Below are positions 20,254-63,912 of a DNA stretch of 64,000 nt, piece after piece. The DNA lies in the NCBI GenBank assembly GCA_048213135.1, contig PS015363.1, positions 6,600 to 70,599 of the forward strand, written 5' to 3'. The translations under genes were made by a program, and so were the position numbers. Every line of letters starts with the position of its first letter. The first letter of the stretch is position 1. Origin of the DNA: Reclinomonas americana ATCC 50394. Taxonomy: Eukaryota. The notes below the pieces were generated by a model. The model did no database searches and was not told the origin of the DNA. It was given only the letters and a program-made list of their open reading frames with translations.

Positions 20254-23200
20254 ATGTTGTCGGCCTTCTCTCCGAGTGTGGCGCACTTCNNNNNNNNNNN
20301 NNNNNNNNNNNNNNNNNNNNNNNNNNNNNNNNNNNNNNNNNNNNNNNNNNNNNNNNNNNNNNNNNNNNNNNNNNNNNNNNNNNNNNNNNNNNNNNNNNNN
20401 NNNNNNNNNNNNNNNNNNNNNNNNNNNNNNNNNNNNNNNNNNNNNNNNNNNNNNNNNNNNNNNNNNNNNNNNNNNNNNNNNNNNNNNNNNNNNNNNNNNN
20501 NNNNNNNNNNNNNNNNNNNNNNNNNNNNNNNNNNNNNNNNNNNNNNNNNNNNNNNNNNNNNNNNNNNNNNNNNNNNNNNNNNNNNNNNNNNNNNNNNNNN
20601 NNNNNNNNNNNNNNNNNNNNNNNNNNNNNNNNNNNNNNNNNNNNNNNNNNNNNNNNNNNNNNNNNNNNNNNNNNNNNNNNNNNNNNNNNNNNNNNNNNNN
20701 NNNNNNNNNNNNNNNNNNNNNNNNNNNNNNNNNNNNNNNNNNNNNNNNNNNNNNNNNNNNNNNNNNNNNNNNNNNNNNNNNNNNNNNNNNNNNNNNNNNN
20801 NNNNNNNNNNNNNNNNNNNNNNNNNNNNNNNNNNNNNNNNNNNNNNNNNNNNNNNNNNNNNNNNNNNNNNNNNNNNNNNNNNNNNNNNNNNNNNNNNNNN
20901 NNNNNNNNNNNNNNNGCCACTGTCAGCTCCGACAATCGAGTGCGCGTGTACTCGACGGGCGATGGCGGCTCGCTGACCGCCAGCTTCACCTTCCCGTCGC
21001 ACCTCACTGTGCGATGCACATGCATGGCCTTTGCGCCTCCAGCCTCGGCCTCTGCGACAGTGCAGTCGGCCAAGAAGGTCGGTTGTGTGCACACTGCCGC
21101 GTGGCGTTTGACACGCGGCCGTCTGCGAGTGTGTCTTGTGTGTCTATGTGCTCATGCCCATGTGCATGGCCTCCCCTTCTGTGCATGTGCAGAACAAGAA
21201 AAAAGGCGGCGCGCCCCCCCACGCCGCCTCGTCGTCTGCTGCTGCGGGCAGTGCGTCGGTCGACGACTTGATGGCGTTTGGCACCGAGAGTGGTCGCATC
21301 TTTGTGTTTAGTCTCGTCAAGAACGAGTTGGTGATGACGCTGGGTGAATCGGGTGGTGAGTTGGCTCTCCTCCTCCTCCTTCTCTCCGTTACCTCGTCGT
21401 GTGGTGTGCTGAAGACTCCTCCTCTATGCACATGCAGGGCACACCAAGTCTGTCACGGGCCTGGCGTTTGCACCGGCCGGTCGCCAAGTGTTGTACTCNN
21501 NNNNNNNNNNNNNNNNNNNNNNNNNNNNNNNNNNNNNNNNNNNNNNNNNNNNNNNNNNNNNNNNNNNNNNNNNNNNNNNNNNNNNNNNNNNNNNNNNNNN
21601 NNNNNNNNNNNNNNNNNNNNNNNNNNNNNNNNNNNNNNNNNNNNNNNNNNNNNNNNNNNNNNNNNNNNNNNNNNNNNNNNNNNNNNNNNNNNNNNNNNNN
21701 NNNNNNNNNNNNNNNNNNNGGTGTCGGTCGATCGTCGCGTGTTGGAGTGGGATCTCATGTCCAAGGAGCTGCTGAGGTTGGTGTCACTCTGTGTGCATCT
21801 ACGTGCATGTCTGCCGTGGCATCTGACGTGCGTTTTTTGTTATATCGGCAGCTCATTCAAGGGCGGCAAGACTGCGCTGTCGGCCGTGTGCATTGATCCG
21901 AGTGGAAGCCACCTGCTGGTGGCCTCGTCGCGCATCAAGATGTGGGACGTCACCTCCAAGTCCAAGCAGCAGAGGTGCGCTGCGTTGTTTTCTCCTCCCT
22001 TTCCTCCCACTGGATTCTCACTCGGTCATGTGGGGGGTGCATGCAGTTTTGCTGGACACCCGAGCAGCGTGCAGTTTATGAAGTTCCTGCAGTCGGGCGA
22101 CAGCTTCGTGTCGGCGGCGCACGACCGTTTTGTGAGCATGTGGCGATGTGAGGATTCCTCCGAGTCTGCGGTTCCGCTAGTGGCCGATGCGAATCCTGTC
22201 GGCCTCGCCGTGTCGCCGCCTAGCGACTCGGTGAGTGCCGTCACCTATCAGTGGCCTGTGTGAAATGCGTGTGCGACTGACTGTCTTTGTGTAGAACGAG
22301 TGCCATGTCGCGTGCCCCACTGAGAGTGGCACCATTTGCGTATGGCGGGTGGTAGATGGAGCGGTGGATGGGCAGAAGCCGTCGGGTTCAGTGCTCACTG
22401 GTTCCCTGGAGCGCGCCACATCGGTGCGGTGTAGCCGTGGACTCGTCTTTTCTCGCTCCTCGCTGAAGCGTGCATGTGACTCGATGCAGATCCTGAACTG
22501 TGCCTTTGATGGATTTGGTCGTCTCTTGGTGGCACACGGACCGATCGTGAAGCCGGTCATCGAGGCAGTGGTGCGTGGAGAAATGATGTGCTGGCGATCG
22601 TCTTTGTCACTGCAGTCTCACACTGCGTGTACTGTTTTGCAGGCATACTTTGATGCGGAGACGGGCGAATTCAACGAGCACGTTGAGCTGGCGAGCGCAG
22701 CACCGGTACTGTCGCTTTCAACGTTCCCTAAGCGTTCACTTTCATGATCTCTGCTGACTCAGCTGGTCTGTTGTGTGTTGCAGCAAACAACCACGGTTGT
22801 GCTCGGTGGCGTCACAATGCCCAAGATGAAGCGTGGTGCTCCGGAGCAGGTGATTACGCAGGCTGAGATGGTTCTTCCCGACATGATGATGGCACTGGAT
22901 GGCGGCGCATCGGCGGAGGCCGACAGCGCTGCCGCGTCAAGCAACCCAGCACCCTCGAAACGCAAGAAGCAAGGTCAGTACAATGTGTGCGACAGGGAGA
23001 GAGAAGGGGAAAGAGTTTGTGCTCACCTTTTTNNNNNNNNNNNNNNNNNNNNNNNNNNNNNNNNNNNNNNNNNNNNNNNNNNNNNNNNNNNNNNNNNNNN
23101 NNNNNNNNNNNNNNNNNNNNNNNNNNNNNNNNNNNNNNNNNNNNNNNNNNNNNNNNNNNNNNNNNNNNNNNNNNNNNNNNNNNNNNNNNNNNNNNNNNNN

Positions 23201-25036
23201 NNNNNNNNNNNNNNNNNNNNNNNNNNNNNNNNNNNNNNNNNNNNNNNNNNNNNNNNNNNNNNNNNNNNNNNNNNNNNNNNNNNNNNNNNNNNNNNNNNNN
23301 NNNNNNNNNNNNNNNNNNNNNNNNNNNNNNNNNNNNNNNNNNNNNNNNNNNNNNNNNNNNNNNNNNNNNNNNNNNNNNNNNNNNNNNNNNNNNNNNNNNN
23401 NNNNNNNNNNNNNNNNNNNNNNNNNNNNNNNNNNNNNNNNNNNNNNNNNNNNNNNNNNNNNNNNNNNNNNNNNNNNNNNNNNNNNNNNNNNNNNNNNNNN
23501 NNNNNNNNNNNNNNNNNNNNNNNNNNNNNNNNNNNNNNNNNNNNNNNNNNNNNNNNNNNNNNNNNNNNNNNNNNNNNNNNNNNNNNNNNNNNNNNNNNNN
23601 NNNNNNNNNNNNNNNNNNNNNNNNNNNNNNNNNNNNNNNNNNNNNNNNNNNNNNNNNNNNNNNNNNNNNNNNNNNNNNNNNNNNNNNNNNNNNNNNNNNN
23701 NNNNNNNNNNNNNNNNNNCGTGCATCCAAATAACCAGAGAAGAACCAAGACGAGGGCCCGACGCTTGGCGATCAGGTGGAGGCAGCGCACGGTGCCAAGG
23801 AGAAGATCAAGGTGTGTTGGTGGCTTTGCATTCTCTCTCTCCGCGCACTCTCTCACAGACGTGTGATCCATGCAGGCGACTCCGTCGGCAGCGAGTGTGG
23901 TGGCTGTGCTGACGCAGGCGCTGCACACGGACGACTCGGCACTGCTGGAGCAGTGTTTGGCAAACGACAACCAAAAGGTCATTTTCGAGACCATTCGACG
24001 CCTCTCTACTCGCCACATTGTGCCCTTCCTCATGCACCTGGTGTCTCGGTGCGTGCCATCGTAGTCTCTCTCTCTCTCTCTCTCTCTCTCTTTGTCGTTG
24101 CTCATGTACCGTGCAGCCTGAACCGCAAGCCATCACGTGCCGCACGCCTGCTGCCCTGGGTCAAGACCGTGTTCCAGTTGCACACGTCGTACCTCATGAC
24201 CGTACCCGATCTGGTCAAGTCACTTGGCACTCTCTACCAGTTGGTGGACAGTCGTCTCTCGGCGCACCAGAGGTTTGCACGCCTCTCGGGTCGACTGGAC
24301 CTGCTCATGACACAGGTGAGCACGCAGAAGAGTGAGAGTGTTTGCTCGAATGAGAGTGTGTTTCTCACTTGTTGTGTGTCCTGAACAGATCTCCGAGCGC
24401 ACCAAGGAGCAGGCATCGGCGCTGGTCGGTGCCAAGAAGCGCAACATTCCGCGAGTGGTACACGTAGAGGGTGAGTCGGACGATGATGACGACGAGGAGG
24501 AGCTTGCCGGCCGGAGTGCTCTGGCACGAATGATGGAGGACGACGCCAATGTCGACGACATGCTGAGGAAAATGGAGAAGAGGCTCGGCATCGACGACGA
24601 CGAAGATGCTGAGGACAGGGCCAGGGCGGCCCGGCGGCGCAGGTCCTCGTCGGGAATGCATGTCGGTGCGTACTTCTCCTCGTGTTCAGGCGCATGAAGA
24701 TGGTGCACCTGTGTCTGATTGCTTTGGTTTCCACCGCAAGCAGATGGTGACGACGATGACGAGGATGATGATGATGATGAAGAAGAGCTCGGCACGGCGG
24801 TGGACGACGAGGCGTCAACAGCATCCGAGGCCGAGAAGGAAACCACGGAGAAGAGCGCGGACGCCGAAGATGAGGACGACGATGAAGAAGAGGACGAGGA
24901 GGAGGAGACGGAGATTGTGTTCAGAGCAGCCAAGGCAAAACCGACGGCGCGGTTCCGCCGCGAAGTGGATGACGACGACGAGGAGAGCACCGACGATGAC
25001 GATGGTGACGACGACGATGATGATGATGACGAATGA
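20254..25036 (+). CDS. WDR43: WD40 repeat plus Utp12 domain SSU-processome subunit (WDR43/Utp5) with acidic tail
   Basis: MLSAFSPSVAHF+ATVSSDNRVRVY, LMAFGTESGRIF, GHTKSVTGLAF, FAGHPSSV; Utp12 domain SVVAVLTQALHTDDSALLEQCL...LLPWVKTVFQLHTSYLMTVPDL...LSGRLDLL; D/E-rich C-terminus. Three internal gaps close with zero bases. Confidence 0.88.
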
Positions 25037-25197
25037 GGCGCGCAATGAAATAGGTATTAATGTGACAACTGAGTTACACACACACTGCGGAGGTGGAAAA
25101 AGGAAAAACGGGGAGCGCGCTACATGCACAAACTGGCAACGAGGGGGGAAAGAAAGGATTGGGAGGAAAGCAATCGAAGGGAAAACCCGTTCGGCAA

Positions 25198-28100
25198 TCA
25201 TCTCTGCATGTGGCCAGTGGTACGTGGTCGCTGGTAATCGTCCTCCCGATGATGCTGCACATATGCACACGCACGGTGAGTGACAAGCCCCAGCCTCATT
25301 CCATGCAGTGGCACTGGCGCTCGACGTACCCCATTGAGATGGCCAAGCGCACTGCCGAGAATGGCCATACTCTTCGGAGCGCCTGTGCCACAACGAGTTG
25401 AGCAGAGTTGCAAATTGATCACTGATATGATAGACACAACACACCGTCGGCACTGTTGGGCAGGCGTGCAGCGCTGGCCGTGATCAGTGCGCGTATCTTG
25501 CGTTTGCGGCTCTTCAGCGGCACCTGTGTGACGAGGAACAGCTCGTCCAGCTCCTCTGGCACCATGTTTTGAATCTCGGCTGCGCGACGACAGTCAGTGG
25601 CGGCAGAACAAGCAGCCGAATAGTTTGAATGCAATACACACGCAACTGATGGTAGTCTCCTCCTCGTCCTCCAACCGCTGAATCGCCTCCGTGGTCTGCA
25701 TTCGGGAGACCTGCAACTCGGAGATGTTGCGTTCGTACTCGGCCGCCATGGAGTCGGCCTCCTGCACAGCGAGCATCACATGGTTCAGTGACAACGCCCG
25801 CACTCCTTTCATTTGTGCATGAGCAACACACCTTGTACGACTCGAGATCACCGACGGCAAGCGATTCGGCGCGGTCCTCCAGTGCACACCGCCGGCTCTC
25901 CTCCAGCGAGGAGATGCGAGCCGAGATGACGGCCAACTCGGATCGTGCGCGCTCAATGCGTCGACGCAGCTCGCGGATAGACTGTGCTCAACGGTGTTGG
26001 TTAACACATCCACTGAATCTCGAAACTGAGTGCGCGCGAACCTCCAGCTTGTGAATCGCAGTCTTGCGGTGCTCCACCGCCAACTTCCACTGTTCCAGAT
26101 CCTTCACGTGCTGCTCACGTGCATCAGTACACAACAAGACATAACGTGCCTGCGAGATGCACCAACTCACCCGTTGCATGTGCTCGCGCGTCTTCCAGAT
26201 GCTGCCCTGCACTCGGTTTACCTCGGCAGCCATCTGCAGACAAACCACACACTCAGTAATCACGACTGTGTGCGTGCATGCGAGTGTAACCCACGAACCG
26301 GCGTGTACAGCTGGTACAGCTGCATGGAGCGCGGGATGAGCACCTGCAGATCGTCGTCCGACACCTGATCGACCACGATCTTGGCACGGAACACCTCCTC
26401 CTCCTGCGTCGCACATGAGCACGCTGCTGCTGCTGTTTGTGTCTGCTTCTCAACATTGCACCGCTCCCACCTTCTCTTCCTCCCACATGGCCTCCCGGCT
26501 GAACAGCAGATCTGTGTACGCCTTTTCTTCCTCGCGCTCGGCCTCGCGAAGCGCATTCCGCGCCCTCTCCAACGCCACCACTTGCTGCTCAAACCAAATC
26601 ATGCTGGTAGTGAGCAACACATTCACCGCTCCACTGAGACGACGAGACGCGCCTTCTTCCACGACTGCTCGCTCCTGGAGACCTCCTCCCGCACACCATG
26701 CAGCTGCTGCCGCATTTGCTGCAGACGCTCGAGATTGACAGCGGCCTGGCGGTAGGCCTCTGGCTTGTGCTCGGGGTTGGAGTAGCCCGTCTCGCCCACG
26801 TCCAACAGCGACTGCGCACAACAACACGTGAGGGCGTGAACCAACCCCATCTCCCACCACAACTGCCACGCACCAGCAGTCGCATCTGTCGACGGTCCTT
26901 GTGCGAGGCAATAGCATCCAGTCGACGCAGGATGTCCGACAGCAATTCGCCAGCACGCGTGGCCAGCTTCACCTTCTCCTCGCTCCACTTCTTGATGTTG
27001 GACTCGACACCGCGCCGGCGCTCGCCAACCTGTTCGGCGCGCGACATCATGTCGGAGCTGGAGCTGCTCATGGTGTCCTTCAGAGTGAGTTCCAGCTCGC
27101 CCAGTTGCTGCAAGGCGGCCTGGATGTTCTGATCCACACGAGCCTTGCCGCGCTTCACCTCCTCGAGATCCTGCAGCAGTTGCTGCACGTCGTTCTCCTG
27201 CTCCTCGAGACTCTGCTCAAACTTGATTCGCTGCTTGTCGTCGTCAACAACCTGCGCCACGACGGCGGTGTCGAGCGGTGGCACCGGCTGCAGGCTCTCC
27301 ATGCCGCGACCGCCTGTCGTCACGTACCCAAACATTCTGCTGGTGAGAAAAAGAGAGTGGAGCAATACGAGCGGTAGTGGGTACGCGACTCCGTAGTGTC
27401 GACACAATGGCATCCTTTTCAAAGACACGTTTGCGCTGCAGCTCCGACTCCTGTGACGCTCGCAGACGCTCCATCAGCTCGATCTTGCGTGACTCCAGCT
27501 TTTGCATCTGTTGCAGGGTGGCGGAGATGTCGGTCTTGATGGACTGCATCTCGTCAGCTGCGGCCTTGGCCCGCTCCGCTTCCGCCTTGGCTTGCGCCTC
27601 GTCAATGACCGGTGGTGCGCGATACGACTTGGGGGAGCCGCGCGTACCGCCCGACACCATGGTCGGCGAGCCGGAGGAGAGCTGACGCTGCACACGGGGC
27701 GCCGGCGACATGCCAATGTCGTCCTGTTGCAAAATCACAAATGTGAGAAAAACAATGGTGACGTGCGACGGTTGTACAATCGAGTCCCACCTCGCGACGC
27801 GGTCGGTTGGGTGACGGTGGATCGTCTGCGCGGGGTGAGCCCATGGCGGACGGGAAGGCATGCGACTCTGTGGCGGAGGATAATGAGCGACGGATACACA
27901 ACTACCACAAGCAGCGAGACGTGGAACCGACCGAGAGCCTCCGGCGGCAGTTCGGAGGAGACCAACAGTGTGCGCAAACCAAACACTTCTTCGGTGCGCG
28001 GAGTGCTGCGCACAACGAGCACAGGTCAGCGACGGAAGAGAGACGCCCCTCGTCTCTCACTCCCATCACGCAACTCGACAGAGGGGCCGGTGACTTGCAG

Positions 28101-31100: not shown

Positions 31101-31175
31101 GCGGAAACGGAAGACCAACGCAACTGCACACTTGGCCTCGTACACACTGGCCGCAGAGGTCGCCGCCGACGCCAT
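25198..31175 (-). CDS. RNI-like leucine-rich repeat protein with long C-terminal coiled coil (possible SAM-like end); 3' end uncertain
   Basis: Repeats such as LSELSLIDNKIGDAGAIALA, ITSLNLANNNLTDEGLGHLC and LSHNPLGDTGV splice continuously into heptad-rich ELMERLRASQE...EQENDVQQLLQDLEEVK. ATG at 31175. Confidence 0.7.
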
Positions 31176-31226
31176 GTTGTGTGTGTGTGTGTGTGGTAAG
31201 AAAGCGAGCGCGATTGTCATTCGCGA

Positions 31227-32700: not shown

Positions 32701-32739
32701 TGGCGAATGTGGCATGTACTTGTACAAACTTTATGAGGC

Positions 32740-34980
32740 TCAATCGTCGAGGAGACGCAAAAAGTCGGGGTCGCCGGCGTCCAAGTTGACCATCTCCTGC
32801 TCGTACGGTCGATGCGTGGCGGGGGGTTTCGCGCGTGGCCGGCCCATCACGAGCGATCGGCGAGCCACACACCAGACCACCAAGAACATGGGGACGACGA
32901 CGACCAGCATCACCACATTGAACACAAAGTAGGAGCCGTTGAAGGCGTGTGTCACTGCAAAGCGAGTCAGCTGGGCGTGGAGGCACAGTGCGTTATTTGC
33001 GTACACACACGCACCAGCGTAGAACATGGGGAATTGTGAAAAGGACACCACGGCACCGATCGTGTACAGGCAACCGATGATGCGACCCATGCTGCGCGCG
33101 TGTCAGTGCGTCGCAGTGGCCAAGGGGGACGCACTACCAATACGTACCTTCGTGCGCCAAACACGCGGACCACAAACACCGAGGCCACCGAGAACAGGAA
33201 CGCGCGAACACAGGTGAAGAGCAGGGCGGTGACCAGTTGCAGCTGGATGATGGGCACCTGCACGAGAACAACTGGTCAGATGGAGGGACAAGCGGTCAGT
33301 GACAGGGGAGAAGGGATGACGGAACCAGTGTGAAGCCACTGTACACCAGCGACAGCACGTTAATGATGGTCATGGAGACGGTGAAACCCCATCTGCGAAT
33401 CAACAAATGTGAGCCGGAGAAAGCACAAGGACACGAAAGTCGATACTGGCGTCACCTCTCGATGCAAAACGAGACCAGTGGTGTAAACAGGAAGCCCAGC
33501 ACGATGACGGTGCCGCCCAGTGTCTCGTACAACTCCACCGTGGCCTTGTCCGACGACAGCGATTCCATGAACGGACCAAACATGCCGAGGCTGCCGTCGT
33601 CGAGTGAGCAACGGGAATATCGGGAATAAACTGTGCAATGCAATGCACGACGCAACAAGGCCACGTTGCGCAGCACGTGCACACTAAAGAAGACGAGAAT
33701 GCCGAAAAACTCGATCGAGCACAATTGCTGCACAAAGGGCGCCCGAGTCAAGTCACGGTGACCATTGGCATACATGCGCTGCGCCGACGCGCGCGAAGGA
33801 TGTGTAAGCAACAGCGCGCGAGAGACAGCACAAAGAAAGGCAGGCGAAGCTCACCGAGGGACTGCCAGACAACTCGGCGGCGTCGTCGGTCACCACCGAC
33901 GCGTCCTTCATGTTTTGCTGCAGACCGCGTCGGTTGAGCAGCCAGAGTGTGAAGAGCACCGTGTGTGTGACGATGGTGATGGCTCCAAAGCCGATGAACA
34001 GCTGCCTCAGCGAGAAGCTGCGTGCACCGCGAATGAGCAAACGCGCGTGGAAACGACAAGAACAAAGAGAGAGAGAGGGAGTCGACGCACGAGTAGGCGT
34101 CTTGTAGCAAGCGGAAGATCAAAAAGACAACGTAGCTGTCGACAGAGAGCGACGGTGAGCAAGCAAAACGTATATGCATGCCGGGAGAGACAATGGGAGC
34201 ACGCACGAGGCATCAAAGAGGCCATTGGAGGCCGACAAGATCAAGGTCTCATATCGCGGCAGCAGGTAGGCGACACGGAAGCCGCAGACAAACACCAACG
34301 TGCTGGCAAACCCAATGAGGCAGTAGCCGACCTCGACAGCGACAAGGAAGCCGAAGAGGTAGTAGCCAGCGAGACCGCAAAGCAGGGCGACCAGTGTGAC
34401 AAGTGCCGGACCAAAGCTGCGACTCGTGCGTCAGTCACAGAGACAGAGAGAGGCACAAGGGAAGAGCGGGTCGTTGCACACCAGTCAAGCAGCAGGCCGA
34501 CGACAATGCCCGATGCTGTTTGTGTGAGTGTCGCCAACGAGTAGACCAAGTTGAGGCGATCCTGGGGGGAACGGAAGCACACGGTCACTGTCCATCCACA
34601 GACGAGAGTGCAACTCACTCTCTCTGATACACACACACCTCCTGCGGCGCACACATGCCCTCGGGTGTGNNNNNNNNNNNNNNNNNNNNNNNNNNNNNNN
34701 NNNNCCCTCGCCACACAGATCGGCAAACACTTTCTCTTGCTGCAGAATGTACAACATGGGCGCCCACCCAAAGACTGCAGCCAGCACAACGAGTGAGAGT
34801 GTGTGTGTGTGTGAGTGCATGCATGCAAGCAGTCAACGCACTGACTCCGGAGAACAGCAGGCTGCACAGCAACACCATCAACGCGAGATAGCCACGTCGA
34901 GTGGCAAACCACGTGCCACAGTGACCGCGCTGCTTCTCGGCCGCCTCCTCCTCTAGTCGTCTATGCTGCGCGTCGCTCAT
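32740..34980 (-). CDS. MFS transporter, SLC43/LAT3/FMP42-like
   Basis: LLFSG|VFGWAPMLYILQQEKVFADLC...DRLNLVYSLA...IVVGLLLD, and C-terminal FVVRVFGAR..MGRIIG...FSQFPMF. Many hydrophobic segments. Confidence 0.75.
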
Positions 34981-35046
34981 TGCGGAGTTCAACAACGAAG
35001 AAGTTGTCCCACACACTGCTCTTGTTTCGTTGTGTGCTTTTGTTTA

Positions 35047-37078
35047 CTACTTTGCAGGTTCTGCTGGTGCTGCGCTGTTGCCGCTGGCACTCCCGTTCCC
35101 GTTCGGGTTGATCATGCGCATAATCCGCGAGTAGATGGCGACGGAGGGCCGGAAAATCGGCAACGTCGGCACCAGTGCGTTGCGAATCGGTCGTGGTTCC
35201 ACGCCAATGGTCAGCACCNNNNNNNNNNNNNNNNNNNNNNNNNNNNNNNNNNNNNNNNNNNNNNNNNNNNNNNNNNNNNNNNNNNNNNNNNNNNNNNNNN
35301 NNNNNNNNNNNNNNNNNNNNNNNNNNNNNNNNNNNNNNNNNNNNNNNNNNNNNNNNNNNNNNNNNNNNNNNNNNNNNNNNNNNNNNNNNNNNNNNNNNNN
35401 NNNNNNNNNNNNNNNNNNNNNNNNNNNNNNNNNNNNNNNNNNNNNNNNNNNNNNNNNNNNNNNNNNNNNNNNNNNNNNNNNNNNNNNNNNNNNNNNNNNN
35501 NNNNNNNNNNNNNNNNNNNNNNNNNNNNNNNNNNNNNNNNNNNNNNNNNNNNNNNNNNNNNNNNNNNNNNNNNNNNNNNNNNNNNNNNNNNNNNNNNNNN
35601 NNNNNNNNNNNNNNNNNNNNNNNNNNNNNNNNNNNNNNNNNNNNNNNNNNNNNNNNNNNNNNNNNNNNNNNNNNNNNNNNNNNNNNNNNNNNNNNNNNNN
35701 NNNNNNNNNNNNNNNNNNNNNNNNNNNNNNNNNNNNNNNNNNNNNNNNNNNNNNNNNNNNNNNNNNNNNNNNNNNNNNNNNNNNNNNNNNNNNNNNNNNN
35801 NNNNNNNNNNNNNNNNNNNNNNNNNNNNGAGTACTGTGCAGTGTGGTAGTGAGCCACACGACAAGAGGCCACTGAAGGTGTGCACGAACGGGACGAAACT
35901 GGGGGGAAGAGGAAGGCGTAGACGCCGCTGCCGACAAAGAAGGGGAAAAAGTACGAGGCCAACGTGAAGGGCATGCCAAAGCCCAAAAAGTACGCCCAGT
36001 TCTCCTCAAAGACGCGTACGCGGCGGCGCAGTGGCCACCCCTGCGTATCCCACTTGCAATCAAAAGCGTAGAAACTGTACAGGAAGCAGGTCATGGGGAA
36101 GGCCAGCAGCCAGCCGACCACCGGCACCAACGAGGCGACAAATAGCTGTGCCACACGAGTTTCTTGTCGTCAGACGACGAGGTGGGTGGAAAGGAGGCAG
36201 GTGACGGCGGACGCACTTGCAGAATGAAGAGGAACACAATGGCCAGGTTGCTGAGCTTCTCCGCAATGCGCTGGCCAAACGGAATGGTACACGTGACCTT
36301 TTCTCCCGTGATCCGATTGTGCGCCAACGAGAAGAACTCGCCGTACCTGTGCGAGTCGGTGAGCAGGGGAGAGAGAGAGAGAGAAGAGAGAAGAGAGAAG
36401 TGCGACGGCGCACCAGATCATGTTGAAGATGGTGCTGAGGCCGTAAATGGGGAACAGCCACAGGAGCTGTATGCAGCGAAATATGAGAGTCCACGTCGAC
36501 AGCAGCAGAGACAACTCTCTCGACTGCCACGCAACATAGTATGCCGGGTACAGCAGCCAGTCAAAGTAGGACGACTGTGGCGCGGTGTCAGCGATGATGT
36601 GAGAGAGAGAGAGTGAGGAGAGAGAGAGAGGAGGGAGGAGGGAGAGACTCGCCTGCAAGGCGGGAAACGCCGCCTGCAAGAGCGGCACCAGAATGTACTC
36701 CAACACGACGACACTCCCGATAAAGATGCACAGGTTGAGCATCAGTGACCTGGACGGGAGGGAAGGAACGGGTTACACACACACACACAACGAGAGAGAG
36801 AACAGACACTCTCTCACTCGCACTCGCGCGCGCGCGCGCAACTTTGAATAGATGCGCCACAACGACGCACTTCGCAGCAGCAAGCGCATCGGTGCTCGCC
36901 ACCGACACGCGTGCATGAGGCCACGATAGAACTCTGACACAGTGTCAGAGCCTCCACTGACAGCAGCTGCTCGTGAAGAAGAAGAAGAAGATGACGATGA
37001 TGATCCAACTCCCCCAGAAGACGGCGACGAAGGCTCGCCAGCAGCACTGGCACCCTCTCGTGCCTGTGACGATGCCAT
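35047..37078 (-). CDS. EI24: Etoposide-induced protein 2.4 family (autophagy-associated membrane protein)
   Basis: LNLCIFIGSV, LWLFPIYGLSTIFNMIW, VPVVGWLL...LYSFYAFDCKW...RVRVFEENWAYFLGFGMP...GVYAFLFP. Confidence 0.85.
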
Positions 37079-37339
37079 GCTCACGCACTTACACAACTCT
37101 CTCTCAGTGAGTAGAGAGTGATCACGTGAACCGCCCGATCAACCAACTGTTGTTGTTGCACAGGAGCGAGCGCCAGTTGCGTCCTCTTCTGTCTGTGCAC
37201 ACTGCGTCACACACACACGCACACAGTCGCCTCTGCGTGCGCGCGCGTGTGTGCGTGTGTGTGCTGCTTGCGCGTCATGACTGACACACACACTCGCGCA
37301 GAGAGAGAGAGAGACGCACTCGTATCACACAGCATCGAG

Positions 37340-39621: not shown

Positions 39622-39663
<42 letters not shown>

Positions 39664-49400: not shown

Positions 49401-49946
49401 GGCGAACTCCATGAGATGCACCACCACAAGGAAAGAATGGATGGGGAGACAATCGTACCGGAAGAGCAAGCGAACGGCAATCACATAGCTGCGAAAGTCA
49501 ATGCCACCAGCGTCGTCTATTCGCAGACAGAGAGTGGTGAGCGGAAAATAAAAAATGCGATCAAAACACGAACACCAGCGCATTCGTCTCACCAGGAGGC
49601 GGCGAGCGAACGGCACGCATGAGTTCCTACGCATCAGCAAGTGAGCACACACACCGGAAGAGAGAGAGAAACAAACAAGAAAACAACAACAACAAAATAC
49701 CTGATAGAATGCTCCGAGCTCGCTCTCTCGAATGCGCGACCAGTACGGCAGCGCGCGTGTGATGCACGAGGCGCGGAAACCTGTCTCGCCTCCATCGCTG
49801 ACGACACCACTGCCACTTGCATTGGCAGCAGAGGAAGAAGAAGACGACGATTCTCCGCTGCCCTTTGCTGCTGCTTGTTCTTGCTGCTGCTGCTCGCTCA
49901 GGTGAAAGTACTCATCCCAGTGACGAGGCGCCGCCTCGCCGCTCAT
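40426..49946 (-). CDS. PSME4: Proteasome activator PA200/Blm10, many introns
   Basis: N-terminal LPYW, LEWRPLF, ARHYFPP, HAHEIKGA-like, LAIDPGN; C-terminal RHSGVLGLGAIVRGYPHDV...FTEEELDILTELMIAPSYYC* (HbYX tail). Confidence 0.9.
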
Positions 49947-50015
49947 TCGCAAAGTTTTTATATTTTTCACGGTCCGGCTTCGTTGATCCGCACACGCAAT
50001 TCGTTTCTTGTGAGA

Positions 50016-51151: not shown

Positions 51152-51266
51152 GGATGCTCTTCGCTCACCACAGCTGCGACAATGATGTCAGTGTCCTATG
51201 TCGCGGCACACACACATAGATTAGTAAAAACCCTCGGAGAGAGAAAGGAAGCTGTGGGGGACGACG

Positions 51267-53303
51267 ATGGGAACGTGTGCGTGCAAGGGCTCCGCGGTGA
51301 TGGAGCGGGGCATTCACACACAGCAGATTGTTGCGCCCGCACACCAGGAAAGATCGCCAGTTCTATCTCATGTTCTCACACGCGCACGCAGCTCACTGCC
51401 AGAGTGACAACAAACGGGCATGTGGCAGAGGTTGGCGACAACGACCTGGGCTCCGAGGCCTCACTGTCGCACATTGAGGTTTGCACGCCCATCATGACAC
51501 ACGCGAGACGAAATCGCTCATCCTTCTTTCGTCCAGGTCGAAGAGGTTCCCGAGGCCATGTGGATCTCACTCATGTCGTTCATGGACTTGAACGATGTTA
51601 CGCGACTGTGGCGTGTCTCTCGCGACTTTTGTCGATGGCTCGAACGGTGGGTGATTGTAGGGTCCTCGCGTCGCTCTTCTGTGCATCTCATCGCCACAGC
51701 ACAGGCATGCGACGATCGAGGTTGGACGGGAGCAGCTGGCCAAGGCCTCCTCCTTGCCCACTGAGGCCCTCATCGGTGGCATGTTTGCGTCGTTTGGTGG
51801 ACTTTGCGCGTTGCATTTGGACGGAGGTGGGACACATGCTGCTGCTGCTGCTGCACGTGCATGCATTTACTTGTGCATTTCGTCGGGGTGCAGTCGCGCT
51901 TGGGCCACGGGAGACACGGGAGATCGCCGAAGGCATCCGATCCAACTCTGGCTCGCTGCGCACGCTCACGCTGACTCGCAACAGCATTGGTGAGGACGAT
52001 TTGCGCTTGTTGGCCAAGCCGTTGCAGGAGAACCGATCCATCGTCACGCTGCGGTTCAACAGTTGCGCCCCGCCCAACCACCCGCATTGTCTGTCTGTTT
52101 GTCTGACTGACTGTGCACACAGCCAACACGGTGGGCGAACGAGGTGCCGATATGTTTGCGGCGGTGTTGCGCAGCAATGATGCGTTGCGGACGCTGACCA
52201 TTGGATGTGCGTCTCTCTCACCATACCGTCTCGCTCCAGTGACGTGCCTCTCCTCACCAAACCTTCTTGTCACCTGCGTAGTTGCTGGGATTGGTGACAC
52301 GGGCGCCGAGCAGCTGGCGGCCGCGCTGCATGTGAATCAGTCGCTCACGGTGTTGGAGCTGCACGGTGAGGAGACGCTGTCTCACTCTCTCTCGCTCTCT
52401 ATCCCTTGTCAGCAACGTGGAACTGAAGCGCAGGATTGCTGCAGGTAACAAGCTGGAAGACGCCGGTGCGACTGCGCTGGCTCGCATCGTGGCCACACAC
52501 GAGTCGCTGCGTGCACTGAAGCTGTCGGGTGAGTCGCCCGGTGATTTCATGCACGTGCATGCTCGACGATTGCCGACCACTGCATGCAGGCAATATGCTA
52601 GAGGAGGCCAGTGGGCAAGCACTTGCGGATGCTCTTTCCGCCAATCGTGTGCTGGAGAAACTCGATGTGGGAGGTGAGAGAAGGAGGGCAGCAAGGATGC
52701 AGAGTCGGGCACATTCCCACCGCCCCCCATGTGCGCACAGTCAATGACTTTGGCGATGTGGCGGTCGGTTTCTTTGCCGATGCACTACGGTGCGACAACA
52801 ACACGCTGCGCAGCCTGAGTCTGAACAAGAGCCGCATTGCCGAAAAGGGGGCGCGACAGCTGGCCGAGATGCTGCGGAGGAACAAGTCGCTGACGTTCCT
52901 CGATGTGTCGGGTGCGTGTCACGGTGGCGACGGTCTATGTGCACCGCTATGAATTGCTCACCGCCGTCTTTTCTGTGTACAGAGAACCAGTTCGGCCTGG
53001 AGGGTGTGCGCGACTTTGCGGCGGCCGTGGCAGAGAGCATCACACTCAAGGTGCTGGTGTTCAACGGTGCGGCGCAGTGCTATCCTCCGTTACCGTCAAC
53101 TTTGCAATCATTCGACTTATGCTGTATGCGTGCAGGAATGAAGTGTCGTGAGGAGGGGGCGGAGCTTGTCGGCGACATGCTGTGTATCAACGAATCGCTG
53201 GACAGTGTGGAACTGTGCCAGAACGAGTTTGGCGAGCGCGGCATGGTGCACATTGCGCGCGGTGTCACCGAGAACGACACACTCGTCTCCTTGTCGCTGT
53301 CAT
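51267..53303 (+). CDS. F-box plus RNI-like LRR protein, 5' part
   Basis: F-box-like VPEAMWISLMSFMDLNDVTRLWRVSRDF; LRRs LRTLTLTRNSIGEDD, LRSLSLNKSRIAEKGARQLAEML, VELCQNEFGERG. Probable MGTCAC start. Confidence 0.7.
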
Positions 53304-53589
53304 GTACGTCTCTGCCTTGCCACTCTCTCCTTCACCGCTTTCATCAATGTGANNNNNNNNNNNNNNNNNNNNNNNNNNNNNNNNNNNNNNNNNNNNNNNN
53401 NNNNNNNNNNNNNNNNNNNNNNNNNNNNNNNNNNNNNNNNNNNNNNNNNNNNNNNNNNNNNNNNNNNNNNNNNNNNNNNNNNNNNNNNNNNNNNNNNNNN
53501 NNNNNNNNNNNNNNNNNNNNNNNNNNNNNNNNNNNNNNNNNNNNNNNNNNNNNNNNNNNNNNNNNNNNNNNNNNNNNNNNNNNNNNNNN

Positions 53590-54007
53590 CAGGCACAGCT
53601 CGACGCGATGAACCAGGAGGACGCCGAGGCACAGGCGACGAGTGAGAGCAGCCGCCGGTACGTGTCGCCTCAATCCCGCACATTGATGAACGATTTCGTC
53701 TGACTCACTCGTTTGCTGCTGGCGCACAGCGCACGAACGGCTCTGTATCATGCCATCTTCAAGCTGCGGTGGACCAAGTACGACGGCAGCACCGTCAAAG
53801 GATGTGCGTTTTCCTATCATTTACGTCCGCATGCACTTGCGAGGTGACTAACATTCGAGGGTGACGTTAGACTTTGCCGACGATGCCGGCTCACCACAAT
53901 CGGCGCGCGCCGAGGGCTTTGAGTTCGAATCGCACAACGTGACGCCATTCGACGTGGCAGATCGACTGTGGACACTGTCGGAGAGAGTGACAACGGGTGC
54001 TGTGTGA
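53590..54007 (+). CDS. SPC24: Kinetochore Ndc80-complex subunit Spc24, C-terminal RWD half (inside the inverted segment)
   Basis: Spliced QAQLDAMNQED...RTALYHAIFKLRWTKYDGSTVKGY|...FEFESHNVTPFDVADRLWTL matches the Spc24 LY..I..I.W..D....VKG...F...D.LW pattern. Confidence 0.75.
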
Positions 54008-54165
54008 GACTCGCCCCGTGTGGATGTATAGCAACAGCGCAATGCGTGAAACCCATGACAATCGATGTTCCCTCCACAGCATATGCTTCTGCGTCTCTCC
54101 ACTACAACGAGCAAGACTTAGGTTTTTCTTTTGTTTTCACACATTATTCATCACCGTCACCATCA

Positions 54166-56541: not shown

Positions 56542-56732
56542 GACTTGCCACACACACACACACAACACACTGCTGCCTCTGGCGTTCCGGACCCTCCGCC
56601 CACGCCTCCTCGTATCACCTCTCTCTCTCTCTCTTTCACACGCCCACGCACGCACTCCGGTCTTCTCTCTCTCGCGTGTATCACCGATTCTCCGTGCGTC
56701 CAATCGACAGACAACTCGACTCGACGATTAAG

Positions 56733-57849
56733 ATGCACTCAGCACTGCAAGCCTTCCACCCACAGCTCTTTGCTGGTCATCGCGTGCTCGTCACGGGCGG
56801 AAGCAGTGGCATTGGTCGCACAGTGGCAATCGCCTTTGCGCGTCTCGGCGCCGCTGTGGCAGGTACACTCTCTCTCTCTCCCTCAGTGCCTCTCTGCCTC
56901 TGTTCCTCACACCACCGAGCAGTGGTCGGTCGCGATCCGGAGCGATGTGAGCGCGTGCTGGGCGAGTTGCGGGAGCAGGCCGGAGCGATGCATCCGGAGC
57001 GACACACGGCGATCCTGGCCGATCTGGCCGAGGTCGAGCCGCACAAGGTCGCCGGCGAGGTGTGGCGACGGGCCGAATCGCACTTTGCGCTGGCCGAGCA
57101 GCTCAAGGAGGCGCGCATCAGTGTGCTCGTCAATGCGGCAGGTGTGTGCAGATTCTTTCTTTTTTCCTTTTGCTTGTCTTATGGTTGGTCGGCGACACAG
57201 GTCTCAATGTCGATCGATTGCTGGCGCGCACCTCGGAGGAGGACGTGTCGCGCCTGTTGAATACGAATGTGGCGGCGACCATGTTTCTGTGCAAGCATGC
57301 GGTGCGGTCGATGATTCGCGCTCGCCAAGGTGCTTGTCAGGCGAATCGTTGTTTTCTTCTGCGTCGTTCGCCTCACGCGTGTGCAGGGTCGATCATCAAC
57401 TTTGGCAGTGTTGTGGGCAAGCACGGCAACGCCGGACAGACGTTATATGGGGCGACAAAGGCGGCGATTGCTGGTGCTGTGTCGCTCTCTCTGTCTGTGC
57501 ACGCGGTTCGCGACAATGACTGACCTGCCATCGCAGGATTCACCAAGTCACTGGCCAAGGAGGTTGGTGGCAGTGGCGTGCGTGTTAACATGGTGGTCCC
57601 TGGCTTCATTGCCACACCCATGACTCGCGGTCTCATCGAAACGACGCCGGTAAACGAGCGCATTGCGCTCGGCAGAGTCGGGCAACCTGAGGTGCGTATC
57701 GTGTCACCTCCGGTGTCGAATTGCGAGCGAGCCCTGCTGACTGCCAGCTGCAGGAGGTGGCCAGTGCGGTGGTGTTTCTGGCCAGCCCAGCCAGCTCGTA
57801 CATCACGGGATCCGAGATCGTGATTGACGGAGGCCTCCTGACGCTGTGA
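56733..57849 (+). CDS. Classical SDR, 3-oxoacyl-ACP reductase FabG/CBR4-like
   Basis: [39 protein letters not shown] (YxxxK), [28 protein letters not shown]. Confidence 0.9.
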
Positions 57850-57855
57850 GCGCAT

Positions 57856-58235
57856 TCAGAGGACGCTCAGTTTGCTCAGTCGTCCAGCTGTCTCGGCGGC
57901 CGCCGCCATGAGCGACTCGCGACCCGGATTGCCGATGCGACACACTGGCGCAGACGAGTAAGCGAGATGACACGGACCGCCTCACAACCCGAGCACGAAA
58001 CGTGAGAGATCGAGTTGCGTAAGAGCGGCGTTCTTCGCCACCGCCGCCGCAATAAACGTAGCGCCGTCGTCTCTCAGCGGATTGCCTGTGGTTTGCATGT
58101 CAGCAGCACGCCGTGAATCAAACAATGCAGGCGTGCAGCAGGGTACGCGACAGCTGAGATCGAGCTGGAGAAGAGTGTCGTTCTCCTCCAAGGCGGCGGC
58201 CAGCAATCTCGCAGACTCGGCGTTGAATTCGTTGT
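57856..58235 (-). CDS. F-box/LRR protein, 3' exons (inside the inverted segment)
   Basis: NEFNAESARLLAAALEENDTLLQLDLS|NPLRDDGATFIAAAVAKNAALTQLDLS|LCRIGNPGRESL...SVL*. Joins the intron interrupted at 53352. Confidence 0.75.
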
Positions 58236-58470
58236 CTGCGGCGACAGCAGAAACGGNNNNNNNNNNNNNNNNNNNNNNNNNNNNNNNNNNNNNNNNNNNN
58301 NNNNNNNNNNNNNNNNNNNNNNNNNNNNNNNNNNNNNNNNNNNNNNNNNNNNNNNNNNNNNNNNNNNNNNNNNNNNNNNNNNNNNNNNNNNNNNNNNNNN
58401 NNNNNNNNNNNNNNNNNNNNNNNNNNNNNNNNNNNNNNNNNNNNNNNNNNNNNNNNNNNNNNNNNNNNNN

Positions 58471-58963
58471 CTCGCTGCCGAGTTCTGCCAGCAGCCTCTG
58501 CGCCTCTCTGTAAAAGCGAATGGATGAATGAGTGAGTTGAGCGTGCGTGGTACGAGGAACGCAACCGCGCATCACTCAACTGCTTCTTTTCGCGAATGGC
58601 CTCAATGGTGCTGTGCAGGGCACGGATCGACGAGGCGTTCTCGTCGGCGTAGGTCTGCCGCTGCAGTACCGTCGTCTTCTCCTCGACTTCGTGCTCACGC
58701 GCATCCACTCGTCTTCTCATCTCTGTGTGCGTGAGCGGGGGCACGCAGTGAGAGGGGGTGGAGGGGAGGGGAGGGAAATGAGGAAGAGGGGAGCACCCAC
58801 CGTCCACCACATTGTCGACATCGGCGGCCTGGCGGTCGAGGTGCCGGCGCACTTCATCACGCAAGTGCTGGATGTTCTGCGCGGTGCGCACATCTTCGGG
58901 GCCCTCATCGGCCAACAGATCGCGAAAGTCGTCAAGACCAGCAGCCAGATCCAGGTCGTCCAT
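58471..58963 (-). CDS. SPC24: Spc24 N-terminal coiled-coil half
   Basis: MDDLDLAAGLDDFRDLLADEGPEDVRTAQNIQHLRDEV...REAQRLLAELGSE joins in frame to QAQLD at 53590. Confidence 0.65.
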
Positions 58964-59639
58964 TCTCTCTTTTCTCAACAAGTCTGTAACGGTCAGAATT
59001 GCCGACCGACGGACACCGATTGTGGAAATAAAATCAGGAAGAACACAGCGACTGTCTGCATGCAGCGAGGTGAAGAGGAGGGTGATAGTGGGAAGAAGAA
59101 GGTGCACGCTCGATCACTGCCGTTGAAAACGCTGGTGACGAAAGATGGTCGGAAAAACAAAGATATCGAGCGCGGATGCACACCACTCCCCGAATTCGAA
59201 CACAAGGCCGCCACCGCCATCCCGTCAACGATGGCAAACATGAAGTATCTCACCAGCAGGCCAATCTCCGTTCTTTCCGGGGGTGCGATGTGCAGTTAAT
59301 GCATCGACAGCAACCACACAAACCATCGCGATATATCGATATCGATCGAACGACGCGAAGCTCTCTCCGACCACACCACTCTTGTCACACCCGTTGTGGC
59401 ATCCGACGCACCTTCCTGTGCATCCCTCCAAACAGCAAGTTGTGGTAACGCCTCTTGCCACACTCGCGGCCTGCCACTGCCACAATTGGCAAGTGCAGTT
59501 GAGCGCGCACACCATTCATGCTCCAGTATTTCTGTCGGGGGACACTTTTTATGTTCTTTGTATTATTCTGTGTCGCCGAGCGCTCGCCGTGTACCTGCTA
59601 TCTTCCCTCCTTTCTTCTCCTCCCGTCTGCATCTTGCGG

Positions 59640-61585
59640 ATGATGCAGCAGCAGCAGGCCGAGGCCTTTGGCACGGTGTCGCGATCGTCGGGCCCGCACC
59701 ATGCTAGCGCTGACGCTGGCATGCTGCTGCCTCCGCTGCTGCTGCCGCCCCCTTCGCTGCCACTTCCTGCAAGCACCGTACACATGGCGGTGCCGGTAGC
59801 CATCGAGGAGAGGCCGGCCGACAGTGCAAGCGGCCGCCGTTTCTCCCTCACCTTGCCCGATGTGGCCATGACGCTGGAAGACGCCTCCCGACTGCACGCC
59901 GAGGACAGTGACGACGACGAAGAGGACTACGAGCTCGACGAGGATAACGACGACGACGGTGACGAGGGGGGAGGCAGGCAACGTGACGGCCTTCGCAGCG
60001 GCGGCGGAGTCGCCACGGCTGCCACCACCGCAGCAACTCCGGCCGGCGCGGCTGCAAGAAGCCGCGCCACAGCTGCAGGAAAGCGCAAGATCGAAATGAT
60101 GTTTCTGGAGGCCAAGAACCGCCGCCATATTACATTCAGCAAACGCAAGGGCGGACTGATGAAGAAGGTGAGGAGAGCCGATTTACGCGACACAGCTGTC
60201 TGCAAATAGTAGTTGACACTCACCGCTGCGCATGCGCTGCGTACAGGCGTACGAGTTGAGTGTGCTGGCGGCTGCACAAGTGCTGGTGCTGGTCGCCTCC
60301 GACAAGTGCCACGTGTACACGTTTGCCACGAGCAAGTTGCAGCCAGTGGTCACACGTCCGGAGGGCAAAGGACTCGTGCAGATGTGCCTCAACATGCTTG
60401 ACTCGGACGAAGAAGACGACGAGGATGGAGTCGACAACGTCAAGGAGGAGGCTGGTGGGCGCCGCCGAGGGAAGCAGCCAGCCGGACGACAGCAGCGACG
60501 AAATACAAAAGACCGTGTTCGACAACAACTCCAGTTGCCACAGCTGCCACCGGCTCCACCACCACTTCTTCTTGATCTTCCTCCGCTGCCACTGCCGCCC
60601 CCACCACCGCCACCGCCAGTGCTGATGGCAGTACCAGCGGAGTCTCGCGGAGACCACCCACCGCTGCCTATCTCTGAATCAGGCAACATCAGTTGGGTTC
60701 TTGCTGCTGTATTTCCTTTTATTCGCACAAAGAAGTTTGCGCTCACCACCATATTTGGCAATCACACAGGTATCCAGACAAACACAGGAGTGAGCCCCTG
60801 GCGACGTGCACTGCCGTCGGCGTCATACAGCGCACCAGATCCGGGACCACATTATCTGTATGCAGAGGCGCCCCCGTCACCTGCTGCGCGCTCCGCATAC
60901 AGTTCTGGTACCATCCCGTATCACCAGTTGCTGCCTCCCCCGCCTCTGTCGTCGCTTCCTCTCCCACCACCACCACCACCACCACCACCACCACCGCCGC
61001 CACCACCAACTTCCTTGTACCCACCCAGCCGATCGTACGTACCCATTGCTCCCGAGCTGTCCCTGGTCGAGGCTTCATCGTTCGTCGGCCACGGTGGTTC
61101 ATCTCTCGGCCTGTCGCCACACACTCACAGCCGTCTGCGATCCGATGGCATCAGCCAGCCGGTGAGTGGACGCAACTCGGCGGAGAAAGTCGCGACCGGA
61201 AAAATCGATATCTCACGTGTGCCTACAATATATACAGCACGGACTGTCGAGCCCGACAGGCAGCTCCACGCCACGTCGCCTGTCGAATCCGTTTCTCACC
61301 GACTTGTTGGCCTCGCCTTCGTCGTCGTTCATGCAACGCACCTCTTCTGGCGCTTCGCTCACGCAGTATGCATGCCAGCTGCCGAGCCATCCGCCGGATT
61401 CACCGCGCATCCCGCTGCAACAGCTGATCAACAGGAAGCCGTCCATGCCGCCGACTCCGCCGAGCACCACCGCCTCAACGACGACGACGACCACCACCAC
61501 CACAACAGCAACTTCTCACGGAACTCCGCTACGTCGTGCTCCCTCCGCGCGGTCACTCAGCTTCTCCAACTCGGGCGGCTTATGA
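59640..61585 (+). CDS. SRF/Mcm1-type (type I) MADS-box transcription factor
   Basis: GKRKIEMMFLEAKNRRHITFSKRKGGLMKK|AYELSVLAAAQVLVLVASDKCHVYTFATSKLQPVVTRPEGKGLVQMCLN; Pro/Ser-rich tail spliced to TGA 61585. Confidence 0.9.
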
Positions 61586-61653
61586 ACTCAGCCACCGCAC
61601 GCACGCTCTCGACGACCATGTATCATCACACCGTTTGCATCATGTACTGCACA

Positions 61654-61686
<33 letters not shown>

Positions 61687-61762
61687 AAATACACAAAAGC
61701 ATTTTCCAATGTGCCCTCTTCCTTCTCACTCACTCTCACTCTCTGTCGCCTTCGCGTGCTGT

Positions 61763-63912
61763 CTAGCGACGAGGGGCTGATCGTGATGGGCCAGCCGAGG
61801 GCGGTGAACTGCCACTGCCCAGCTCGTTGATAAAGTAGTCGCGGAGATCTGGCGGCAGGGCATCGAGGTCGCGCGCATCGCGGAACACACCCTTCGGCAG
61901 GAACTTGAGCAGCTTGGAAGCATGCTCCCGAATCATGCGCTGTCGCTCCTGCTCGATAATGGCACGACGAGCAGCCTGTCGTGACTCCTCGTCCTCCATC
62001 TCCTGGCGCTCACGCTGCCGCTGCTCCTCCACCATGCGCCGACGTTCCTCAATGAGTCGGTCAACCTGAATGACACGAGTGAGTTGTCGTCGTCAGTGAT
62101 TTGCATGCGCATGGCCAAGACAAACTCTCCCACTCACCTCCTTGCGGTGGTCCATTTGCTTGCGACGACGCTTCTCTTGGCTGAGTTGCTCCAGGCGATC
62201 GTCTTCTGCGAACTTTTCCAGCATCTGGCGACGGAACTCGTCCTCCTCCAGGCGCTCGGCTTCCGCACGCTCGGCCTTGACACGCATCTGGAACTCGTTG
62301 GCCTGAATCATCTCCAGACGAGAGCGGATGCGCTTCTCGTTCTCCTCACGCTCCTTCTCGCGCTGCTTCTTGGCCTCCTCCTCCAAGTGCAGCTCCACCA
62401 GCAAGTTCTCGAACTCTTCCTGCTTGGCGCGCTCCTGCAGAATGCGCTCCGATTGCTGCACACACGTACACAGAAAACAGACACTGTCAGTCACCAGTTA
62501 TGAGAGAAGAGATGAAGAGCGTGTGCAAAGACGCAACAATGGCAAGCAAACGGTCCTTCTCGGCCTGCACACCCGCACGCTTGGCCTCGCTGACTGCTGC
62601 TCGCGACTCTTGCTCCTCCAGGTATCGGCGAATCTACACGAGAAAAAATGCACTCACATAAGTTGAACGGACCGGAGATGCTACACAAAATCCACGTGAC
62701 AAACCTGCTCGTTCTCCTCCTGCTGTCTCCGTCTCTCGTTCTCTNNNNNNNNNNNNNNNNNNNNNNNNNNNNNNNNNNNNNNNNNNNNNNNNNNNNNNNN
62801 NNNNNNNNNNNNNNNNNNNNNNNNNNNNNNNNNNNNNNNNNNNNNNNNNNNNNNNNNNNNNNNNNNNNNNNNNNNNNNNNNNNNNNNNNNNNNNNNNNNN
62901 NNNNNNNNNNNNNNNNNNNNNNNNNNNNNNNNNNNNNNNNNNNNNNNNNNNNNNNNNNNNNNNNNNNNNNNNNNNNNNNNNNNNNNNNNNNNNNNNNNNN
63001 NNNNNNNNNNNNNNNNNNNNNNNNNNNNNNNNNNNNNNNNNNNNNNNNNNNNNNNNNNNNNNNNNNNNNNNNNNNNNNNNNNNNNNNNNNNNNNNNNNNN
63101 NNNNNNNNNNNNNNNNNNNNNNNNNNNNNNNNNNNNNNNNNNNNNNNNNNNNNNNNNNNNNNNNNNNNNNNNNNNNNNNNNNNNNNNNNNNNNNNNNNNN
63201 NNNNNNNNNNNNNNNNNNNNNNNNNNNNNNNNNNNNNNNNNNNNNNNNNNNNNNNNNNNNNNNNNNNNNNNNNNNNNNNNNNNNNNNNNNNNNNNNNNNN
63301 NNNNNNNNNNNNNNNNNNNNNNNNNNNNNNNNNNNNNNNNNNNNNNNNNNNNNNNNNNNNNNNNNNNNNNNNNNNNNNNNNNNNNNNNNNNNNNNNNNNN
63401 NNNNNNNNNNNNNNNNCGCAGCACCTCCTGCTGCTGCAGGAACTCGCGAACGAATGCCTGCGTCTCCTCCTGCTTGCGCATGCGGTCCAGCTGTTCGCGC
63501 TCGTCCTCCAGCTGGATCTTACGCACGAGCTCGTCAATCGCATCCTTCTCGCGGAGGAACTCCTCATACGCATGCTGGCGTGCAATCTCGCGCTCCTCCA
63601 TCTGCTGCTGCAGCATGACCTTGCCCTCCAGCAAGTGCTCGTGTCGCAGTCGCTCCTTCTCGCGCTCCGCAGCGTCAGCCGCCAAACGCGCCTGCTCCAT
63701 CTCATCCGCCTTGACTCGGTCGTATTCCTGCACCGCACAAGGTGAGCCCTCACAACAGCCATGTGTGTGTGTGCGTGTGCGCGTGGACGCACCGCATCCT
63801 GCTGTTGCCGAATGCGTGCCTCCTCCACCTGATTGGCACGCTCCATGCTGACATACGCCACACGCAGCTTCGACTCCAAGTCCCTCAACTCATCGCTCTC
63901 CTCGCGAATGCG
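61763..63912 (-). CDS. MNS1: Meiosis-specific nuclear structural protein 1 (axonemal microtubule inner protein); 5' end beyond the window
   Basis: RIREESDELRDLESKLRVAYVSMERANQV; MLEKFAEDDRLEQLSQEKRRRKQMDHRKEVDRLIEERR; IIEQERQRMIREHASKLLKFLPKGVFRD. Confidence 0.88.

Follow-up and report, generated by a model that had tools for sequence, protein, structure and literature searches.

Assembly gaps that close without loss in conserved genes of Reclinomonas americana may hide introner-like inserts

We analyzed a 64,000-nt stretch of the genome assembly of Reclinomonas americana ATCC 50394 (contig PS015363.1, positions 6,600 to 70,599 of the forward strand; hereafter the window), in which runs of N interrupt several conserved protein-coding genes. 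The window is eukaryotic sequence with a G+C content of 58% and a CpG observed/expected ratio of 1.04. When 150 of its 151 open frames of at least 145 aa were scanned with Pfam, matches were obtained to CFAP74, TALE homeobox, WD40 and Utp12 (WDR43/Utp5), TPGS1, EI24, PSME4, SDR, MADS box and the TPH domain (MNS1). Twelve N runs are present, with sizes of 405, 75, 20, 626, 221, 686, 35, 610, 237, 214, 672 and 20 N. The initial annotation had counted seven of them, for which its coordinates, N counts and flank strings were correct. Five of the N runs lie in genes homologous to WDR43, EI24 and MNS1, and their flanks appear to join with nothing missing between them. These five, and the gene that holds three of them, are as follows (positions are those of the window).

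20254..25040, plus strand: WDR43/Utp5-like gene, which holds three gaps; recognized by Pfam WD40 and Utp12 matches and by homologue alignment
20290..20915, plus strand: gap of 626 N in the first coding exon of the WDR43/Utp5-like gene, between codons 12 and 13; zero residues lost
21499..21719, plus strand: gap of 221 N in a WD40 repeat of WDR43, in a codon split after its second base; zero residues lost
23033..23718, plus strand: gap of 686 N in intron 9 of WDR43; the joined intron is 78 nt long and GT-AG
35219..35828, minus strand: gap of 610 N near the 3' end of an EI24-like gene; the frame is open on closure and a stop follows 56 codons on
62745..63416, minus strand: gap of 672 N in a coding exon of an MNS1/FAP127-like gene; zero residues lost

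The closure of the gaps in WDR43 was examined by homology. A profile was built from the Utp12 exon of the window and two fragments, which were the only WDR43 matches of a word-index protein search. A search with this profile yielded 1,861 proteins at E ≤0.001. From the 150 best of these, 87 were dropped as fragments or outliers, leaving 63 full-length WDR43 homologues of 560-800 aa. The first 330 residues of these homologues were aligned using MAFFT with the window protein, spliced with both exonic gaps closed at zero. No homologue (0 of 63) possessed residues between the junction columns at either the 626 N or the 221 N gap. Further, the flanks of both junctions lie on conserved columns, namely the ...F^A.VS.D.R.RV... 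motif of the first blade at the 626 N gap and the ...LYS^.S.D... motif of a WD40 repeat at the 221 N gap (here and below, ^ marks the cut). With all three gaps closed, the 12 exon pieces form one uninterrupted coding frame. Every one of the eight visible introns is of the GT-AG type and measures 64-115 nt, and because the intron joined across the 686 N gap is likewise GT-AG and, at 78 nt, of a size within that of the others, this gap probably closes at zero as well.

The closest full-length homologues among the 63 aligned, from Cyanophora and Ichthyophonus, were 34-37% identical to the window protein, and the protein itself was not found in a collection of 5.8 billion proteins, so that the organism appears to lack an annotation. 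Because WDR43 is at most 37% identical to any of the full-length homologues found, the source lineage seems to be poorly sampled. The 3' part of the gene (24460-25040) encodes a long Asp/Glu-rich tail from GAY/GAR-rich repeats, and most of the "direct repeat" families reported in the window come from this tail. Upstream of the gene, a 41-nt inverted repeat (18483-18523 and 20144-20184; 73% complementary) flanks the spacer between the homeobox gene and WDR43.

The 672 N gap was measured against chain 8glv_4O (FAP127/MNS1). Residues 54-156 of the 157-aa frame that ends at the gap aligned without gaps to positions 163-265 of the chain, and residues 7-106 of the 106-aa exon beyond the gap aligned to positions 319-418. 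Between these anchors lie 14 residues after the junction and a 32-codon exon, the splice sites of which were assigned by reading. The first residue of the large exon was predicted at position 313 (266 + 46 + 1) and was observed at position 313 (319 - 6). Because the 14 + 32 residues exactly span the distance between the anchors, the predicted MNS1 protein is missing no residue when the gap is closed. A word-index protein search with MNS1 returned zero homologues, and none was obtained for EI24.

In the EI24-like gene, the exon upstream of the 610 N gap matched PF07264 (EI24; profile positions 126-188 of 199, E 9.4e-11), and the junction lies approximately 40 codons C-terminal of this match. 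The 56-aa tail that follows the junction matched nothing in Pfam and Atlas searches. Continuity of the reading frame suggests that this gap, too, probably closes. The 66 nt directly before the junction (35834-35899, minus strand) begin with GT and end with CAG, and their length is divisible by three; they may form a short intron within the frame, which would place the junction 5 nt past its 3' splice site.

An exonic gap closes in frame by chance in one case of three, and the homology tests applied at three sites are stricter than this. As judged from the encoded proteins, closure with no residue missing holds for the 626 N, 221 N and 672 N gaps. Thus, nothing of the mRNA is missing and the flanks abut at three gaps, and probably at two more (686 N and 610 N). 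The initial annotation had proposed that the gaps close with zero missing bases; homology bears this out at the three sites, the 78-nt intron makes it probable at the 686 N gap, and at the 610 N gap and a gap of 35 N the proposal comes down to frame continuity. Contig ends that arose independently would not abut to the base by chance, and a branch point of the read graph at that very base would be needed.

The other seven N runs of the window are as follows.

12593..12997, no strand assigned: gap of 405 N between two divergently oriented open reading frames (reading only)
13608..13682, plus strand: gap of 75 N; its left flank lies in an open exon frame and its right flank resembles the 3' end of an intron (reading only)
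19082..19101, no strand assigned: gap of 20 N between an (AC)n run and a (CT)n run; an ordinary microsatellite break
34670..34704, minus strand: gap of 35 N in a coding exon of a membrane-protein gene; the closed frame is intact (reading only) and the stretch aligned to nothing
53353..53589, plus strand: gap of 237 N, with its left flank in an intron after a GTACGT donor; zero closure fails
58257..58470, minus strand: gap of 214 N in a minus-strand gene; one frame is open on closure and the better-looking frames of the two sides disagree
63918..63937, minus strand: gap of 20 N just upstream of an MNS1 exon, adjoining a likely 3' splice site

When the GTACGT donor at 53304 was joined to the CAG at 53590-53592, a stop was encountered 17 codons later; therefore, the 237 N gap contains real sequence. 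By reading, the 75 N gap also seems to contain real sequence and seemingly cuts a domain. Pfam scans of short sequences beside the 75 N and the 214 N gap found no family, and the noise in codon usage scored over 60 nt of flank was too high to resolve the unclear gaps. As to the two small gaps that had been thought to close at zero, the frame across the 35 N gap appears intact by reading, and the 20 N gap at 63918 adjoins the 3' end of an intron. The scaffold is thus a mixture of ordinary gaps and gaps that close flush.

Several features lie beside these gaps. The two diverging frames at the 405 N gap (12300-13300) are a minus-strand frame that starts near 12480 and a plus-strand Cys/His-rich frame near 13040, and the gap would occupy their shared promoter region. 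The 20 N gap at 19082 interrupts a compound (CT)n-(AC)n-(CT)n-(AC)n microsatellite of approximately 200 bp (18980-19210), and dinucleotide runs are common in the introns and spacers of the window. The genes at the 237 N and 214 N gaps (53134-53303, plus strand; 58075-58510, minus strand) read as RNI-type leucine-rich-repeat proteins, although Pfam was empty on a 60-aa piece, and these two breaks may reflect the repeat units of the genes themselves.

The lengths of the stretches between the N runs indicate how the gaps arose. These stretches measure 12592, 610, 5399, 1188, 583, 1313, 10951, 514, 17524, 4667, 4274, 501 and 63 bp. None of the 11 internal contigs is shorter than 500 bp, and four of them fall at 501-610 bp (501, 514, 583 and 610 bp). 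Random breakpoints reproduced this 500-bp floor together with the pile-up above it in approximately 5 of 100,000 trials (P ~5e-5). We concluded therefore that the scaffold was assembled from contigs of at least 500 bp, that shorter contigs were dropped, and that the N runs mark true scaffolding gaps. The same floor, together with the presence of unmasked microsatellites, rules out that the Ns derive from hard-masking or from masking by the provider. A minimum gap of 20 N and a contig floor of 500 bp resemble what we take to be the defaults of Newbler.

The dropping of contigs below 500 bp explains why gaps of fewer than 500 N can contain real sequence, and such gaps may correspond to dropped unique contigs. 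The four gaps of more than 500 N are all of the closing kind, and each is too long for a single dropped contig of less than 500 bp. Further, the sizes of the closing gaps (221-686 N) lie far above the 20 N minimum, which is seen twice in the window; the read pairs would thus have reported a real distance across them.

At the cut, the five closing junctions read C^G, C^G, T^C, C^G and T^C. The initial annotation had placed all five large gaps on a YTCG motif, and 5 of the 12 junctions do match the motif when the cut may follow its second or third base on either strand, compared with 3.8% of 59,867 background positions. The choice of motif was corrected for by letting random sets of 12 sites use whichever of 1,536 motifs of equal complexity, in two cut windows, matched most often; five matches were then reached by 21 of the 400 sets (P ~0.05). 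The proposed clustering of four gap sizes at 610-686 was not significant (P 0.67), and we rejected it as a sign of a single element length. In contrast, the identity of the 221 N and 610 N junctions, which lie in unrelated genes on opposite strands and share GTACTC^GGTG, was confirmed and is unusual. A 10-base identity of this kind was reached in 22 of 5,000 random sets of 11 sites (P 0.004), the microsatellite gap being excluded from the observed set. The flush closure is thus real, and the motif and the size cluster had been overstated. An artefact of restriction sites or adaptor trimming at TCG was also considered from the flank strings and discarded by reasoning, since no common site fits all five junctions and trimming loses bases and would not leave flush ends.

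As causes, the initial annotation had named over-estimated gaps and a multicopy element of 0.6-0.7 kb as alternatives. A flush break implies that the reads diverge at that base, which would occur with a repeated insert, with an insert present in part of the material, or, if nothing is inserted, through a break that is left unexplained. The last of these corresponds to phantom gaps, in which the contigs simply abut and the scaffolder overestimates distances, as could happen if an incorrect insert size was set for the library. That the closed state gives normal gene structure (the 78-nt intron and exons of usual size), that the gap sizes do not cluster significantly and that the motif is weak all agree with this explanation; moreover, the 35 N gap and perhaps a 20 N gap may close at zero, in which case the sizes may be unreliable. 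However, it does not account for two contigs that end on adjacent bases without overlap or loss. An unbiased estimate for abutting contigs should equal the minimum, whereas the proven cases read 221, 626 and 672 N, and other gaps of the same scaffold contain real sequence. We regard phantom gaps as an unlikely explanation, albeit one to be taken seriously.

The second route is presence/absence polymorphism, in which empty and filled alleles would both occur in the sequenced material through heterozygosity or a mixed culture, and the insert need be neither repeated nor spliced. Any graph assembler would break flush at such an insertion point, closure would occur without duplicated bases and the gap sizes would lie well over the 20 N minimum, as observed; in a de Bruijn assembler, this would presumably be the sole route to flush ends. 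On the other hand, four to five allele-specific inserts in the coding parts of three conserved genes within 43 kb would be a heavy load if unspliced. No junction shows a target-site duplication, unlike the insertions of most transposons, and neither ambiguity codes nor other signs of two haplotypes are present in the window. On balance, we regard polymorphism as unlikely to the same degree as phantom gaps.

The repeated-insert route fits the flush ends, the large gap sizes, the size split between closing and other gaps, and the fact that no copy of a dispersed repeat is assembled in the approximately 60 kb of sequence of the window, because every copy of the repeat would break the assembly. 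As the best single explanation, although with somewhat less than an even chance of being correct, we suggest that repeated intron-like inserts, at whose edges the contigs stop, were omitted from the scaffold, and that these inserts constitute a hidden introner-like family recognizable from the assembly breaks rather than from any insert sequence. Each of the five points would carry a genomic insert of roughly 0.2-0.7 kb from a repeated family. The assembler would have halted each unique contig at the edge of the repeat, the collapsed repeat contig would have been left unplaced and the scaffolder would have filled the hole with Ns sized from read pairs. The inserts would leave the transcript precisely, as intron-like elements of the introner kind without target-site duplication. 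Because the host genes (WDR43, MNS1 and EI24) are conserved and their frames are restored without duplicated target bases, any such inserts would need to be spliced out. We infer the presence of anything in the gaps, its repetition and its splicing; the indirect evidence, namely the flush breaks, the closure of all gaps of more than 500 N and the dropping of contigs below 500 bp, leans toward real inserted sequence.

Ordinary long introns of unique sequence, left unassembled because of internal microsatellites or hairpins, would be another explanation. Microsatellites do break the assembly, as at 19082, and by our reading an intron could directly follow CG at four of the junctions (...CG^intron), given one base of ambiguity. 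However, contigs would then extend into the unique ends of the introns, and joining the flanks would not give back the exact frame. Further, the visible introns measure only 64-115 nt and one of the gaps itself sits within an intron. We consider this explanation very improbable.

Introners were detected in 175 of 3,325 genomes, and target-site duplications were found in 49 of 130 introner families, according to the excerpted text of PMC9860276. The same excerpts describe some families that lack duplications as well as inverted ends, as well as an Acanthoeca family with inverted ends and no duplication, and state that most introner insertions leave mRNA length unchanged. In Micromonas, Aureococcus, dinoflagellates, the ILEs of ascomycetes and Acanthoeca, the inserts occur in many genes and their removal leaves the mRNA length unchanged, and the scar-free closure in the window is alike in this respect (PMC9860276, excerpts). 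There, too, some families lack target-site duplication, and the elements occur in aquatic protists with otherwise short introns. In the window, the frame is restored with an mRNA length that is unchanged, or nearly so, at three junctions and probably at two more. The likeness is known here from gap flanks, and all candidate copies are Ns, so that element sequence, copy number, splice sites and splicing would lie hidden in the gaps. In addition, one site of the window lies inside an existing intron, and the cuts follow a pyrimidine instead of the usual G. A literature search that paired introners with assembly gaps found no paper.

Other known systems were compared with the window. According to a passage of PMC2864248, contigs from Newbler and other conservative assemblers terminate at the boundaries of repeats, and the gaps that collapsed repeats leave in Newbler-type assemblies resemble those of the window in this respect as well as in their minimum contig size and in gap sizing from read pairs. 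Gaps left by ordinary transposons are flanked by a duplicated target and do not lie in exons of conserved genes, whereas joining the flanks in the window added no residue and no bases were repeated at the cuts. Helitrons insert between A and T. Like the sites of the window, their insertions lack target-site duplication; however, the window junctions read C^G three times and T^C twice, and a Helitron was therefore rejected.

Removal could also take place at the DNA level. Internal eliminated sequences of ciliates are excised precisely and thereby restore coding sequence, and a sample containing both unexcised and excised genomes would yield the flush, scar-free closure in coding sequence that we observed. 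However, neither TA nor any other repeated pointer is present at the five junctions. Composition, gene set and ordinary stop codon use give no ciliate-like hint, and there is no sign of two genome forms or of nuclear dualism. A ciliate-type eliminated sequence was rejected on these grounds, and DNA-level excision in general is the explanation to which we attach the least credence.

Several observations weigh against hidden introner-like inserts, and for this reason we hold the explanation only tentatively. No base of any insert has been seen; when metagenomes were scanned with the 24 bases adjoining the 221 N gap on the left, 0 matches were obtained. The motif at the junctions is weak, and the MNS1 junction lacks YTCG in the orientation of the gene. 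That four gap sizes fall within 76 bp is unremarkable and does not point to a uniform element length. The base before each cut is C or T, compared with G before 12 of the 13 introns that we read, and at three of the junctions a canonical intron requires moving the cut by one base, which the ambiguity of the alignment allows. For the EI24-like gene, the evidence of closure is the frame. Finally, three inserts in one essential gene of 4.8 kb (WDR43) are many.

A more specific and more far-reaching proposal can be formulated, which we consider improbable. A duplication-free element with a preferred site (pyrimidine-TC^G, twice GTACTC^GGTG) would be invading one gene after another in a poorly sampled flagellate lineage, in which native introns measure only 64-115 nt. 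It would have inserted three times in an essential ribosome-biogenesis gene and would leave no scar on removal, whether it is spliced from non-standard exon contexts or excised from the DNA itself.

The two kinds of outcome differ in what they mean. If the gaps are phantoms, several genes would be annotated as broken or split though they are complete, and the gap lengths of the assembly would be untrustworthy. If instead the gaps hide an introner family, R. americana would provide a fresh case of ongoing intron gain, and draft assemblies could conceal the very elements that searches for introners seek.

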